Shown in pieces: positions 40,481-60,401 of a stretch of 64,000 nucleotides of DNA (position 1 is the stretch's first letter; every line of letters begins with the position of its first letter). Below the pieces are notes generated by a model that did not search any database, was not told where the DNA came from, and was given only the letters and a program-made list of their open reading frames with translations. The DNA is taken from IMG/VR virus record IMGVR_UViG_2757320360_000002, positions 1,328 through 65,327 of that record; one strand, given 5' to 3'. The stretch is from a virus. Lineage: Duplodnaviria; Caudoviricetes. Both the position numbers and the translations under genes were made by a program.

Positions 40481-41469
40481 TCGCAAAGTCCGTAAGCAGA
40501 GCTGCACGCCGTTGGCTCGTCCAACGCTGTGAGCAACGAAAATTGCTTGCCGCCGCGGCTGGTCTTCGACCATTCGACAACTGCTTCGATGGTCGAAGCC
40601 TGGCCCGAGTGCGCCTTAGTGCCCATATGGAAGAACGACACAGGTGAGCGCGGTCGGCATACCTCAGATACCAGGGCTTCCCATTCCGCGATTCGAACGA
40701 TGTGCTCAGGGAACCGGCGAGACACTTCGTGCAGCTCCCCTTTGCTGCAGTTGACGCAAGGCATGCAGCCGACGCGCGACATGCCTTGCTTGTAGAGCGG
40801 ATTTGGCTCGATGCCAGCCAAGCGATGGGCCTCGAACACGTCACCGACGTTCCAGCGCAAGATGGGCCGGTAGGTGAACAGGCCGCCGCCCACCACCTCA
40901 AAGTGCTTGACGCACGCGCCAGTACCTTGCAGCCGCTCGCGACGTGATTGGCTTTCATCGATACGGACGCCCTGCCAGGACCAGATCGCGTCGCACTCAT
41001 GATCAATCAATTCCATGGCGAACTCCGTCAAGGGTTTAGTCTTGAGGTATTCCGTGCAAAACTGCCGTTTGCGCGACGGGAAGCCGCCGCGCACCATGCA
41101 AAGGTCCAGGTATGGGTTTCCAGTTGGGTGAAGCAGGTCAAGGGCACGCTGGGCGGCCTCTGCCGTCCAGTGGTACATAAACTTGCGTTTTCCATATACA
41201 GCTGATTCAGGCTCGCCGGCCGCGATGCGTGCCAGGTTGGCTCGCTTGGTAGCGAACTCATCAGCGAAATCGGCTCGCACCACGTAAACCTTGATGCCCA
41301 GGGCCGCCGGCAAGTAGTCCAGCGCATATTCCAGCGTGCTCTCGTGCTCGTTGCCCGTATCGGCCATGACGAAGCGGCATGCGGCCGTACCGTGCTGTTC
41401 TAGGGCAAGAATGGCGGTAGCCGTGCTGTCCTTGCCGCCCGAAAGTGAAATCAAGTGGATCAGGCTCAT
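40477..41469 (-). CDS. PAPS-reductase-family (PP-loop) protein
   Basis: SLSGGKDS, ADTGNEH, CTEYLK..P, GVRIDES..R, NPLY..G.SRVGCMPC. Confidence 0.9.
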   Translation of the reverse strand: MSLIHLISLSGGKDSTATAILALEQHGTAACRFVMADTGNEHESTLEYALDYLPAALGIKVYVVRADFADEFATKRANLARIAAGEPESAVYGKRKFMYHWTAEAAQRALDLLHPTGNPYLDLCMVRGGFPSRKRQFCTEYLKTKPLTEFAMELIDHECDAIWSWQGVRIDESQSRRERLQGTGACVKHFEVVGGGLFTYRPILRWNVGDVFEAHRLAGIEPNPLYKQGMSRVGCMPCVNCSKGELHEVSRRFPEHIVRIAEWEALVSEVCRPRSPVSFFHMGTKAHSGQASTIEAVVEWSKTSRGGKQFSLLTALDEPTACSSAYGLCE

Positions 41470-41477
41470 GATAAAAT
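41466..41477 (+). promoter_or_regulatory. Extended -10 promoter candidate TCATGATAAAAT
   Basis: TGn-TAAAAT built on the reverse complement of the ATGA junction. Confidence 0.6.
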
Positions 41478-42104
41478 TGCCTTTTGACAAGAGGATATAT
41501 GTTGACTTGGTTTAGATGGGCGATGCTTGTAATTGCTTTGGGCGCAGCCGGCTACTACGGCTACCGAACGACTCCTTGGTCTTGTGTGGATGCGACGGTT
41601 ACTGCGTACTGGGTGCAGGCGATCGGTTCGATAGCAGCGATCTACTGGGCTGCACGCATTGCAAGTAGGCAGACTCACACAGCACGAATTGACCGGAAAA
41701 GAGCGCATCTTGAGACAGCAATGGCCACTCTTCTGCTCGCAGACCGCTTTCGCGAAGAGGCCATGAATGCGGCGCAACATGCGAGAAGTGCAATCATTTT
41801 TCATAGCGGATTGAAGCTCACATCTGCCAAAGACCGAGTTGAGCGCATCCACGCGAATATCGAGATTCTGTTTAAAAACAATGTTGATGCCGATGTATTG
41901 AGTATTGTTCTGAGAATCCACTCGCAGACTGGAGCAGCGCTCCGCAACATGGAGGCCGTGATCGGGGATAGTTCCAATCGAGATAACCACAAAGAGTCTG
42001 CCAGCACGGTGGTTGAGCATCTGAGTAACATTGCCCCTGATTTGAAGGCATGCACTCAAAGGATCGCGAGCGAACTTGCTAAAATTGACTAAATAAGTAG
42101 TCAC
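41466..42104 (-). CDS. Bridge ORF 2 (212 aa), antisense to cargo gene
   Basis: GTG overlaps MTase stop (GTGA); TGA overlaps PAPS-reductase ATG (ATGA). Confidence 0.45.
   Translation of the reverse strand: MTTYLVNFSKFARDPLSACLQIRGNVTQMLNHRAGRLFVVISIGTIPDHGLHVAERCSSLRVDSQNNTQYIGINIVFKQNLDIRVDALNSVFGRCELQSAMKNDCTSRMLRRIHGLFAKAVCEQKSGHCCLKMRSFPVNSCCVSLPTCNACSPVDRCYRTDRLHPVRSNRRIHTRPRSRSVAVVAGCAQSNYKHRPSKPSQHISSCQKAILS
41499..42092 (+). CDS. Antisense cargo gene 2: W-x-QAIG membrane protein
   Basis: GAGGA RBS; two TM segments, YWVQAIGSIAAI..SRQ, helical C-domain; AT-richer. Confidence 0.8.
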   Translation: MLTWFRWAMLVIALGAAGYYGYRTTPWSCVDATVTAYWVQAIGSIAAIYWAARIASRQTHTARIDRKRAHLETAMATLLLADRFREEAMNAAQHARSAIIFHSGLKLTSAKDRVERIHANIEILFKNNVDADVLSIVLRIHSQTGAALRNMEAVIGDSSNRDNHKESASTVVEHLSNIAPDLKACTQRIASELAKID

Positions 42105-58253: not shown

Positions 58254-58266
58254 GCGAGCAGCCGCC

Positions 58267-59736
58267 ATGTTTTTCAAGAATTTGCAGATTTACCGCTTGC
58301 CCGCCGCTTGGGCCATGACGGCCGCCCTGCTCGAGCAGGCGCTGGCGCCGCACCAGTTCACGCCGGCCACCAGCATGGACCTGGTACGCCAGGGCTGGGC
58401 CGCACCTCGCGGCGCCGGCGCGCCGCTGGTGCACGCCGTGAGCGGCCAGTTCCTGCTGCAACTTAAAACCGAGAAGAAGCTGCTGCCATCGACAGTGATC
58501 AACCAGGTGGCCGCCGCCCGCGCACTGGAAATGGAAGAAGCCCAAGGCTTCGCGCCCGGCAAGAAAGCCATGAAGGAACTGAAAGAGCGCGTCACCGACG
58601 AGCTGCTACCGCGCGCGTTCGCCATTCTCAGCACCACGGCCGTGTGGATCGACTCGGTCAACGGCTGGCTGGTGGTGGACGCGGCCAGCCCGGCCAAGGC
58701 CGATGAAGTGATCAAGCTGCTGCTCAAATCCGTCGACAAGCTGCCGCTGGAAAGCCTGCGCGTGCAGCGCTCGCCGGTCGGTGCCATGACGGAATGGCTG
58801 CAAACGGGCGATGATCCGGCTGGCTTCACGGTCGACCAGGACGCGATCATGCGCGCCACAGGCGAAAGCAAGGCCCAGGTGGCATACAAGCGCCACACAC
58901 TGGAAGCGGACGATATCCGTCGCCACATCGCCGCCGGCAAGCAGTGCACCCGCCTGGCCATGACCTGGAGCGACAAGATCAGCTTCGTGCTGGACGAGAG
59001 CCTGGCCATCAAGTCAGTCAAGCCGCTGGAAATTATCAAAGAAAGTACCACGCGCAACGACGACGAGCGCTTCGACAGCGATTTCGCCCTGATGGCGGGC
59101 GAGCTGGCCAAGATGCTGGCCGACTTGGTCGAGGCGCTGGGTGGCGAGGCCGACGTGGAGACGCAGGCGTCGGGCCCGGCTGCTGCCGGCCAGCAGAAGA
59201 CCGAGCGCGCCGTGAACTTGACTGCCGATCTGTACAAGCTGCGCAACCGTTATCGCGATGTGCTCAACGAGCTGTATGAAAGCACCGTGCAGCCGGCCGT
59301 TGCCCGCGTGCGCGAGCAAATGGAGCAAACCGCCGAAGGCGCGATTAAATCGGCGCTGACGCTGGCCAAGGAACTTCCTGGCGGCTCACAATCCGCCGAC
59401 CTGTTCCTGGTAGCCGCCGCTGAGATCATGGAACCGAGCCCACGGGCGGCAGCGGGCGATGCCCCTGTCCGCCAGCAGCGTCCGGCGCTGCAGCTGAATG
59501 GCGAAGCAGCAGCCGTGCCGCCTGGCGACGGCAGCGCGACCGATCCGCTGTACGACCAGGCCGTCGAGGTCGTGCGCACGCACCAGCGCGCGTCGATCTC
59601 GCTAGTGCAGCGCCACCTGCGGATCGGCTACAACCGGGTCGCTCGGCTGCTGGAGACAATGGAAGGTGCCTGCGTGGTCAGCGCGCAAGCGTCGAACGGC
59701 GCACGCGAGGTGCTGGCGGAAAGTGACGTGAAATGA
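58267..59736 (+). CDS. rdgC: RdgC recombination protein fused to FtsK gamma-like domain
   Basis: [24 protein letters not shown]; C-terminal [31 protein letters not shown]. Confidence 0.88.
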
Positions 59737-60401
59737 TCTCACTCTGGCTCCACCGACAGCTTGGGCCTAACCGCAGCGCTGATTTCGCTCATTGCTGCAG
59801 TCATATGAGTATTGGCTCTGCTGATAATTACGTGAAGCTTGAGCAAGCGGAACTCATGCTGCATGATATCTGGTTCAGGATTGAAGGTATCCAAGATTCC
59901 TTGAGTCGCCACACCGACGGCAAAGATGTCAGCGTTGACCCTTGCAATATTCTCAGCGCAGTCGCTTCCCAAGCCAGACAGTTTCAAAATATCTTCGGAG
60001 GAAAGCTTGTGGCAGCTTTTGCTCCAAGCCACAAGCTCTCGGAGAGCACCCTCTGTAATACTGCCGCCGCCAACTGTAATGACAAAATATTCATTGAATC
60101 GTTGAATTTCGTCGGAAAGTTTCCTCAGAAGGGTCCAGTGTTCGGCTGCAGCCAATATAGCAACGATGCGCTCTTTTCTATGGCGCTCCCGCTCGCCTTT
60201 GCCAGCAAGCCAGATAGCAGCCCATATGGAGACGACTGCCCCAATTGCCTGCATCCACCCGGCAGCCTCGCCCGAACCAAAACCTTTACATTCAACTGCG
60301 CGCGCAAAGCCACAAAGCAAAGTTGCCAAGAGGAGCAAAGCAGTGAGCCAACCATACCAATTTTGTCTAGTAATTTTTATCATGGAGCAATATTAGCATG
60401 A
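59733..60401 (+). CDS. Bridge ORF 4 (222 aa), antisense to cargo gene
   Basis: ATG overlaps RdgC stop; TGA overlaps ATG at 60398. Confidence 0.45.
59739..60383 (-). CDS. Antisense cargo gene 4: W-x-QAIG membrane protein
   Basis: Two TM segments, [16 protein letters not shown]; AT-richer; probably leaderless. Confidence 0.78.
   Translation of the reverse strand: MIKITRQNWYGWLTALLLLATLLCGFARAVECKGFGSGEAAGWMQAIGAVVSIWAAIWLAGKGERERHRKERIVAILAAAEHWTLLRKLSDEIQRFNEYFVITVGGGSITEGALRELVAWSKSCHKLSSEDILKLSGLGSDCAENIARVNADIFAVGVATQGILDTFNPEPDIMQHEFRLLKLHVIISRANTHMTAAMSEISAAVRPKLSVEPE
60390..60401 (-). promoter_or_regulatory. Extended -10 promoter candidate TCATGCTAATAT
   Basis: TGn-TAATAT with 6 nt to the ATG at 60383. 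Confidence 0.62.

Follow-up and report, generated by a model that had tools for sequence, protein, structure and literature searches.

The closest analogue of the present arrangement, as far as it is described in a preprint, is the TERi locus of the Listeria comK prophages (phi10403S terI/anti-terI2; bioRxiv 10.1101/2025.02.27.640495). According to that description, TERi consists of an accessory (defence) gene placed antisense in the early lytic operon, served by its own promoter and wholly overlapped by an operon-strand ORF; its promoter region is conserved in 96% of comK prophages, with alternating genes behind it (bioRxiv 10.1101/2025.02.27.640495). A second term of comparison is the moron concept (Juhala et al. 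2000, as cited in PMC10884400), represented in the same source by Tab of Pseudomonas phage JBD26, a moron located on the opposite strand with its own promoter.

The DNA analysed here is a stretch of 64,000 nucleotides of phage DNA (hereafter, the window), in which three cassettes, numbered 2, 3, and 4, can be read as accessory genes (cargos) inserted antisense inside phage early operons, each with the same 12-mer at its 5' edge. As general background, galP1 is an extended -10 (TGn) sigma-70 promoter; TGn extended -10 promoters work without a -35; and the lambda cI mRNA from PRM is a leaderless prophage transcript. The features of the three cassettes are the following (SDs of operon genes were read from the sequence):

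41466-41477, plus strand: cassette 2 junction 12-mer TCATGATAAAAT, TG at 41469-41470, hexamer TAAAAT at 41472-41477
41469-41467 and 41468-41466, minus strand: operon-strand ATG and covering-ORF TGA of cassette 2, respectively
41480-41483, minus strand: SD of the PAPS-reductase gene, AAGG on the operon strand
40477-41469, minus strand: PAPS-reductase-domain gene, its ATG inside the 12-mer
41499-42092, plus strand: cargo 2 (P0006), a two-TM WxQAIG protein of 197 aa; it has an SD of its own, AGAGGA
41466-42104, minus strand: covering ("bridge") ORF 2, with a GTGA overlap with the methylase stop at its start and the ATGA junction at its end
44023-44034, plus strand: cassette 3 junction 12-mer TCATGCTAAGAT, TG at 44026-44027, hexamer TAAGAT at 44029-44034
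44026-44024 and 44025-44023, minus strand: operon-strand ATG and TGA of cassette 3, respectively
44035-44039, minus strand: SD of the C5 methylase gene, AAGGA on the operon strand
42101-44026, minus strand: C5 cytosine DNA methylase gene, its ATG inside the 12-mer
44062-44667, plus strand: cargo 3, a WxQAIG protein (P0002, read from TTG 44050), with a GTG start
44023-44766, minus strand: covering ORF 3, with ATGA overlaps at both ends
60401-60390, minus strand: cassette 4 junction 12-mer TCATGCTAATAT, TG at 60398-60397, hexamer TAATAT at 60395-60390
60398-60400 and 60399-60401, plus strand: operon-strand ATG and TGA of cassette 4, respectively
60384-60387, plus strand: SD of an unnamed 214-aa operon gene, GGAG
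60398-61042, plus strand: the unnamed 214-aa operon gene, its ATG inside the 12-mer; no Pfam match
59739-60383, minus strand: cargo 4, a 214-aa WxQAIG protein (P0004), its ATG 7 nt after the hexamer
59733-60401, plus strand: covering ORF 4, with ATGA overlaps with the stop of the RdgC-domain gene and with the start of the next gene

The three 12-mers had been located at these positions by an earlier note on this DNA, and the positions were confirmed: the window contains exactly three occurrences of the consensus TCATG(A/C)TAAnAT, where about 0.03 would be expected. The form TCATGMTAANAT likewise gives three matches (0.03 expected; 0/100 shuffles reach three) and the looser TCATGNTANNAT also gives three (0.10 expected); the bare TGNTANNAT shows no enrichment in the window (6 versus 9.6 expected), the three junctions representing half of its sites. 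The remaining TGnTAnnAT sites (42077, 44403, and 49068) are internal to ORFs. All three 12-mers span an operon-strand ATGA stop/start overlap, and a gene for a two-TM "WxQAIG" membrane protein begins on the opposite strand 6-27 nt downstream of each. Among the 83 NTGA stop/start candidates of the window the motif is found in three, all of them cargo junctions.

Read on the operon strand, each 12-mer is AT-n-TTA-K-C-ATG-A and comprises the final codons of the covering ORF (Ile-Leu-Ser/Ala) and its TGA, overlapping the ATG of the next gene, with an SD 7-10 nt upstream of each junction ATG. This supports the earlier view, according to which the operon-strand half serves the next gene as its translation-initiation region. 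Moreover, the junctions show the sequence hallmark of coupling, a 4-nt stop/start overlap together with an upstream SD, from which we infer translational coupling at the ATGA junctions. In principle, the motif might be only such an initiation region (an A/U-rich spacer followed by ATGA), inherited by paralogous cassettes, TGnTAnnAT being a coincidence. A/U-rich SD-to-ATG spacers are indeed common, the variable base of the 12-mer falls on the third position of the Ile codon (ATT/ATC/ATA) in the covering frame, and the three cargos are paralogues. We nevertheless regard this explanation as very improbable: the motif is missing from the other 80 NTGA candidates in the window, as well as from 72/77 and 51/55 homologous junctions elsewhere; it is conserved where no opposite-strand gene exists; and the cargo proteins are only about 30% identical, their DNA being otherwise unalignable. 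As a distinct possibility, the origin of the motif as a chance by-product of ATGA junctions was refuted by the junction catalogues.

In our opinion, the 12-mer probably combines two signals placed back to back, a -35-independent extended -10 promoter for the cargo and the initiation region of the next operon gene; promoter activity, the positions of the transcription start sites, and expression in the lysogen are all predictions from the nucleotide sequence. On the cargo strand, TGnTAnnAT would act as a -35-independent extended -10, and the transcript would begin 6-9 nt downstream, being leaderless in cassette 4 and preceded by a leader of 12-21 nt in cassettes 2 and 3 (for cargo 2, the predicted +1 is at about 41484-41487, and the PAPS-reductase SD lies within the first bases predicted to be transcribed). 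On the operon strand, the same bases provide the A/T-rich SD-ATG spacer, the ATG of the next gene, and the overlapping TGA, which closes the stop-free ORF covering the cargo. The CATG palindrome is the hinge of the whole arrangement: one strand takes its ATG from it and the other its TG, and the two share a single base pair. The A of ATG is paired with the T of TG, and the G is opposite the base that precedes the start codon. Because the -35 position lies within the following gene, whatever that gene is, a promoter able to work at any junction would be expected to be -35-independent.

The attribution of the cargo-strand half to an extended -10, already advanced in the earlier note, is consistent with its behaviour in the homologues, where it is conserved as such a promoter would be. 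The TG is present in all three junctions (TGA-TAAAAT, TGC-TAAGAT, and TGC-TAATAT) and in 22 homologous copies; TAnnAT (T-12, A-11, and T-7) occurs in all instances, and only the middle positions vary. Compared with TATAAT, the hexamers agree at no more than 4-5 of the six positions, and no conserved -35 is found at the junctions or in the homologous copies. A two-hexamer promoter scan found nothing at the cassettes; it gives no independent support, because a candidate promoter without a -35 is expected to be missed by such a scan. Might the conserved bases represent, instead, an operator for a phage or host regulator? Conserved bases are indeed found slightly outside the canonical element (C at -2, T at +9, and C at +11 from the T of TG); but dyad symmetry and a second half-site are absent, the conserved positions are those of the sigma-70 contacts (TG, T-12, A-11, and T-7), the tolerated variation falls on weakly conserved -10 positions, and the fixed 6-nt spacing to ATGs lacking an SD fits a transcription start. 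There is, in our judgement, very little chance that the operator reading is right.

Within the promoter reading, cassette 4 is the most compact case. Cargo 4 has no SD and shows a leaderless layout, and the 6 nt that separate the cargo ATG from the -10 hexamer include the complement of GGAG; if this reading is true, 21 bp would hold a promoter, a leaderless start, an SD, a start codon, and a stop codon. The leaderless geometry pointed out for this cassette recurs at four further junctions, so that an ATG placed 7 nt after the hexamer without an SD is found at five junctions (cassette 4, L122, L100, L195, and L188). Leaders of 16-36 nt contain an SD in most cases, the exceptions being the cassette 3 type (cassette 3, L184, and L185) and possibly L193. 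For cargo 3, GTG 44062 is a more likely start than TTG 44050, because it is aligned with the ATG of the close homologues L184 and L185; no recognisable SD was found for cargo 3 and these homologues, the leader being about 20 nt long.

The distribution of the motif in the cargo family was then considered. TGnTAnnAT lies upstream of 22 out of 40 unique homologous cargo genes, against about 1.3 in shuffled sequences (controls: one in the reversed sequences, none in the reverse complement, and 8/240 in other sequence windows); the related copies lack phylogenetic independence. The strict motif is missing from the other 18, some of which have a -10 without TG. In eight copies, 141 nt separate TG from the Trp codon of WxQAIG. 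In three embedded copies, TGTTACnAT and the ATGA junction are about 25 nt apart, and intergenic copies located after hairpins (GAGTGCTACGAT, TCGTGCTAGGAT, and GCGTGCTACGAT) have no gene starting opposite. These intergenic cassettes keep the motif as CGTG or AGTG, with no start codon; hence it was too strong to state that the operon's own start codon makes up the promoter, the motif being retained where the opposite strand has no start codon. The same distinction applies to the SD complement said to follow the hexamer: it is found at the junction copies and not where no gene starts on the opposite strand, CCT or CTCC after the hexamer occurring only where a gene starts there.

Furthermore, junctions with and without cargo were compared among related phages. 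The PAPS-reductase junction is filled in the window, L036, L038, and L042, and the filled relatives carry the motif; it is empty in L037 and L039 (96% identity, no cargo), which read GGAGGATTGAAG-ATG and lack the motif. In the relatives of the 214-aa gene, the motif is present at 5 of 77 junctions, with an antisense ORF behind all five. The motif is therefore not equally common at junctions devoid of antisense genes; equal frequency is what the earlier note had named as contrary to its proposal, so that this check did not refute it. In five related proviruses, TCATGnTAnnAT occurs at 14 sites (none in the backwards control), 13 of which lie on the ATG of an operon gene, 6-36 nt upstream of an antisense ORF; six small putative ORFs behind the motif in relatives do not belong to the family and gave no Pfam or PHROG match. 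Start codons inside the motif belong to at least five gene families (PAPS reductase, C5 methylase, YbcO, DUF5131, and the unnamed 214-aa protein). Moreover, the same junction can harbor a changed cargo behind an unchanged candidate promoter, as in cassette 3, L184, and L185 versus L186, and in cassette 2 versus L038.

These comparisons also bear on the idea that the main role of the motif is that of a cassette boundary or recombination site, acting through the conserved junction or through ATG(A) microhomology, with its likeness to a promoter being secondary. Breaks in homology between relatives are placed exactly at the junction. With the empty sites of L037 and L039, the blastn homology of the window sets in precisely at 41469, the A of ATG; in L039 a cassette similar to cassette 2 is found one gene further along, before the YbcO gene, and its homology to the window stops exactly at 41466, the last base of the 12-mer; between L036 and the window, homology breaks off precisely at 42101, the methylase stop, and is found again within the cargo. 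When the empty L037 is compared with the filled L038, the insert is flanked by ATG on both sides, and the former SD and ATG now belong to the covering ORF. In L186, the methylase junction has an 82-aa ORF in place of the WxQAIG cargo, and identity stops about 19 nt into the junction. Selection acting on random recombinants, however, would also leave breakpoints at precise gene boundaries, 12 bp is short for homologous exchange, the cassettes lack a recombinase, terminal inverted repeats, or a conserved motif at the other end, and a 9-bp core is kept in intergenic family members, where no junction exists; this explanation appears unlikely. A mobile element proper was ruled out, since a second conserved end, inverted repeats, and a recombinase are all absent.

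Starting from the promoter reading, a broader and more speculative proposal can be made, which we put forward tentatively as possible rather than probable. A unit of about 20 bp (SD complement, extended -10, CATG, A) would represent a portable "socket" for plugging any accessory gene backwards into any operon start-codon junction: the incoming gene would receive a -35-independent promoter and the displaced operon gene a new SD and ATG, the previous SD and ATG would launch a stop-free covering frame keeping ribosomes on the operon mRNA, and the unit would also be a preferred crossover point for cassette exchange. The recombination functions of the phage itself may drive such an exchange.

As for the cargos themselves, searches with Pfam, PHROG, and PADLOC retrieved only a weak match to phrog_33632, whose function is unknown, and ESM Atlas only clusters of hypothetical proteins, with structure matches of TM about 0.5 or less. 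A megablast of positions 39500-46000 against phage records retrieved only methylase fragments (Bcep22 and VpaJT_1); a tblastn of cargo 2 against phage records gave no match. Covering ORF 2 has no protein family match. The covering frame is maintained without stops: the codons TTA, CTA, and TCA are absent from 21 out of 23 embedded cargos, versus 2-20 of them in 15 out of 17 others. The codon-position test was carried out on closer embedded homologues, since among the family pairs only non-embedded copies are close enough, and revealed that substitutions are concentrated at position 3 of the cargo codons. For the covering frame pN is 0.385 and pS 0.295, versus 0.245 and 0.761, respectively, for the cargo, and the covering-frame dN/dS is about 1-1.4, all of them values that overlapping frames bias. 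The opposite possibility, that the covering ORFs are the real genes and the cargos their shadows, was rejected: the cargo family exists elsewhere without a covering ORF, and the substitutions fall at cargo codon position 3. The terminator scan found no intrinsic terminator after cargos 2 or 4, which therefore are not textbook self-contained transcription units; cargo 3 has only a weak hairpin within its 3' end. The GC content of the 1-kb segments with cassettes is 0.53-0.58, versus about 0.61-0.64 in most of the record.

If the promoter reading is true, the arrangement would offer a compact and reusable way of carrying lysogen-expressed genes in lytic operons, the operons being left unbroken, and the layout of the junction would be a concrete model for mosaic breakpoints that fall on gene boundaries. 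It also yields a sequence rule: TCATGnTAnnAT on a start codon flags an antisense ORF (13/14 in the related proviruses), and could help to locate, in Proteobacterial prophages, antisense genes of the accessory or defence type that lack annotation.

Compared with the known systems, the predicted element resembles promoters of the galP1 type in having TG one base upstream of a T-12/A-11/T-7 hexamer and no recognisable -35, and differs from them in being also coding sequence and initiation spacer on the other strand. As in lambda cI, the AUG is the predicted 5' end of the mRNA in cassette 4, L122, L100, L195, and L188; unlike lambda cI, this end is predicted from spacing, and the gene codes for an accessory membrane protein rather than a repressor.

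Like morons, the cassettes are present or absent among close relatives and deviate in composition; moreover, as in the published account of Tab, an extra gene with its own (here predicted) promoter lies between minus-strand operon genes. Classical morons have a promoter and a terminator and are located in intergenic gaps, whereas cargos 2 and 4 have no terminator, so that the pairing of an own promoter with an own terminator is not found here. Unlike in morons, there is no untranslated gap, the covering ORF closing it with 4-nt overlaps, and the candidate promoter is embedded in the initiation region of the next gene.

With respect to TERi, as described in the preprint, the phylum of the host differs; the complementary gene of TERi codes for a functional self-immunity protein, whereas the covering frame shows no purifying selection here, by an estimate biased by the overlap. 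The fusion of promoter and start codon, the many junctions per phage, and the leaderless variants are features of the present locus that the TERi description, as far as it goes, does not include. The two systems share, instead, an antisense gene in an early operon, its complete overlap by an operon-strand ORF, a conserved promoter-like element, and alternating cargo behind this element.

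The window, corresponding to the 65,327-base IMG/VR provirus record minus its first 1,327 bases, harbors the degenerate word TCATGMTAANAT at three sites and nowhere else (0.03 expected); the looser word TCATGNTANNAT retrieved the same three sites (0.10 expected). Their positions coincide exactly with those given in the earlier note, and the observation of a shared 12-bp junction is confirmed. On the strand of the early operon, every 12-mer lies at a 4-nt ATGA overlap between the TGA of a stop-free covering ORF and the downstream gene's ATG; on the opposite strand, a cargo gene begins just downstream. 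The three cassettes (numbered 2 to 4) comprise the following features:

41466-42104 (-), covering ORF 2; the next gene codes for a PAPS-reductase-domain protein
41499-42092 (+), cargo 2 gene
44023-44766 (-), covering ORF 3; the next gene codes for a C5 DNA methylase
44062-44667 (+), cargo 3 gene
59733-60401 (+), covering ORF 4; the next gene codes for an unnamed 214-aa protein
60383-59739 (-), cargo 4 gene

Outside the 12-mer, cargo DNA can barely be aligned among the three cassettes, so that the conservation of the 12-mer stands out. The cargo-strand core alone, TGnTAnnAT, is not enriched in the window (six sites vs. 9.6 expected), and three of the six are the cargo junctions. The other three, at 42077-42085 (+), 44403-44411 (+), and 49068-49076 (-), all lie within ORFs; the first of them is located 15 nt ahead of the cargo 2 stop and is directed into the antisense strand of the methylase.

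The three cargo proteins are paralogues sharing about 30% identity, with two N-terminal TM helices and a W(V/M)QAIG motif in common and a divergent C-terminal part. Profile searches retrieved about 40 unique copies of this WxQAIG family, located in proviruses and in genomes of Janthinobacterium, Bordetella, Achromobacter, Pseudomonas, Paraburkholderia, Caulobacter, and others. The comparison of cassette 3 with a 61%-identical homologue revealed 57, 47, and 117 substitutions at cargo codon positions 1, 2, and 3, respectively (pN 0.245 and pS 0.761 in the cargo frame); judged from these comparisons, the cargo strand is the coding strand of a real family. The start of cargo 3, previously placed at the TTG at 44050, is probably the GTG at 44062, which aligns with the ATG of the homologues at loci L184 and L185.

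The upstream region of every unique family copy (n = 40) was then inspected, anchoring on the cargo family. TGnTAnnAT precedes 22 of the 40 copies; the corresponding control counts are 1.3 for shuffled sequence, 1 for reversed sequence, 0 for the opposite strand, and 8 out of 240 for further windows from these loci. Its distance from the Trp codon of WxQAIG is nearly fixed (141 nt in eight copies, 135-168 nt overall). The invariant positions (TG, T-12, A-11, A-8, and T-7) are those of an extended -10 element, in agreement with the match initially proposed; a search for a conserved -35 upstream of the cargo copies found none. Moreover, intergenic copies behind hairpins read GAGTGCTACGAT, TCGTGCTAGGAT, and GCGTGCTACGAT, and in three embedded copies TGTTACnAT is retained at a distance of about 25 nt from the ATGA junction. 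The cargo-strand half of the motif is, at the sequence level, a conserved promoter-like element, and it does not depend on the opposite-strand start codon. At four loci (L012, L011, L010, and L016), one or two GC-rich hairpins with flanking A-runs and T-runs, probably bidirectional or opposite-strand terminators, lie just upstream of the predicted cargo promoter; they suggest that these intergenic copies occupy transcription-unit ends, at which a covering ORF is unneeded.

On the operon strand, the complement of the -10 is the spacer that separates the SD of the next gene from its ATG. The bases right after the hexamer in the window (CCTT, TCCTT, and CTCC) are SD complement, as had been described; this feature is present in junction copies but not in intergenic ones. 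Such a restriction to junction copies would be expected if the sequence had adapted to both uses, and the dual-use reading of the junction appears well supported by comparative evidence. The predicted promoter and the start codon share only one base. They meet in the palindrome CATG, where the A of ATG is the pairing partner of the T of TG, and the base ahead of the start codon is the partner of the G. Furthermore, the intergenic form TCGTG becomes TCATG by a single G-to-A change, the other strand then reading ATGA. The statement that the promoter is built from the operon's own start codon is, therefore, too strong; the predicted promoter would more accurately be said to abut it through CATG.

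The spacing geometry fits the predicted transcription starts. In cassette 4, six bases separate the hexamer TAATAT from the cargo ATG, and there is no SD; this leaderless spacing, already pointed out, recurs at L122, L100, L195, and L188. An SD is present in most leaders of greater length (16-36 nt), e.g., AGAGGA in cassette 2 and GGGGGG in intergenic copies, while cassette 3 and its close homologues (L184 and L185) have a leader of about 20 nt with no clear SD in any of the three.

Concerning junctions with and without cargo, the motif was found in 3 out of 55 junctions among PAPS-reductase relatives (L036, L038, and L042), all filled; in 5 out of 77 among relatives of the 214-aa gene, all with an antisense ORF, which is a WxQAIG cargo in three cases and another small ORF in two; and in 3 out of 83 NTGA candidates in the window, all three being cargo junctions. 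The motif is thus not equally common where antisense genes are lacking, and the finding withstands this refutation test proposed in the earlier note. In L037 and L039, which harbor a 96% identical PAPS-reductase protein, the junction is empty and reads GGAGGATTGAAG-ATG. In five related proviruses, TCATGnTAnnAT occurs at 14 sites (0 in the backwards control), 13 of which lie on an operon-gene ATG, 6-36 nt upstream of an antisense ORF; these ORFs are seven WxQAIG cargos and six other candidates of 76-121 aa, the latter with no match in Pfam or PHROG. The start codons embedded in the motif belong to at least five gene families (PAPS reductase, C5 methylase, YbcO, DUF5131, and the 214-aa protein).

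The cargo and the covering ORF are read in register on their two strands; hence, any stop in the covering frame would appear in the cargo as TTA, CTA, or TCA. In the window and the related loci L007-L035, such codons are absent from 21 out of 23 cargos embedded between opposite-strand genes and number 2-20 in 15 out of 17 non-embedded copies. No protein family matched the covering ORFs, and in the same cassette 3 comparison their frame has a pN of 0.385 and a pS of 0.295, with a dN/dS of about 1-1.4. Avoidance of stop-codon counterparts, lack of a family, and pN/pS together indicate a frame that looks selected to stay open rather than conserved as a protein. A long covering ORF is not universal, since at some motif-bearing junctions of relatives, at L188 (G005), L192 (G003), and L183 (G005), where predicted promoter and start codon are likewise fused, the frame that terminates at the junction TGA extends over just 3-5 codons. 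Covering ORF 4 starts in the ATGA that holds the stop codon of the gene at 58267-59736 (+), whose 489-aa product combines an RdgC domain with an FtsK-gamma domain at the C-terminus in one fusion protein.

Sequence homology of the window to the empty-site relatives starts precisely at the ATG (41469). In L039, a cassette 2-like cassette lies one gene further on, ahead of a YbcO gene, and its homology to the window stops at the last base of the 12-mer. L036 has in common with the window the methylase through its stop codon as well as the junction and the 5' end of the cargo gene, the C-terminal part of its cargo being different, and L038 has the same junction followed by a cargo of a different subfamily; at the L186 methylase junction, an 82-aa ORF replaces the cargo and identity stops about 19 nt into the junction. 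When filled L038 is set against empty L037, the insert has an ATG at either side: the pre-existing SD and ATG pass to the covering ORF, and a new pair is provided by the cassette end. The junction may be an exchange site for cassettes: the coincidence of breakpoints with it fits either exchange there or selection of precise recombinants, and the cassettes showed neither a recombinase nor inverted repeats, nor a second end that is conserved.

The window and the L036 proviruses are 89% identical outside the replaced cargo part, the N-terminal TM module and predicted promoter being kept; the family thus seems to combine a constant anchor with an exchangeable domain. The replaced segment is the C-terminal ~140 aa (window 41627-42100 vs. 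L036:1819-2334). Searches of PADLOC, Pfam, and Atlas for cargo function retrieved nothing; a membrane-anchored role in exclusion or defence would be conjecture based on the context. The two divergent early operons flank a Peptidase_S24 (CI/LexA-like) repressor gene at 47630-48337 (+), and cargos 2 and 3 have its same orientation.

Phage operons are already known to harbor accessory genes in antisense that have a promoter of their own, as in the case of Tab of JBD26, encoded on the minus strand between terminase genes (PMC10884400). The closest match to the junction cassettes is the Listeria TERi locus, where an antisense defence gene within the early lytic module is overlapped by a complementary-strand gene, and the promoter is kept in 96% of comK prophages with five different genes alternating behind it (bioRxiv 10.1101/2025.02.27.640495). 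As far as the consulted portions of the TERi and Tab descriptions go, four aspects are found only here: a predicted -35-independent promoter fused to the start codon of the next gene, one unit at several junctions within a single phage and in both early operons, predicted leaderless variants, and a covering frame apparently not conserved as a protein.
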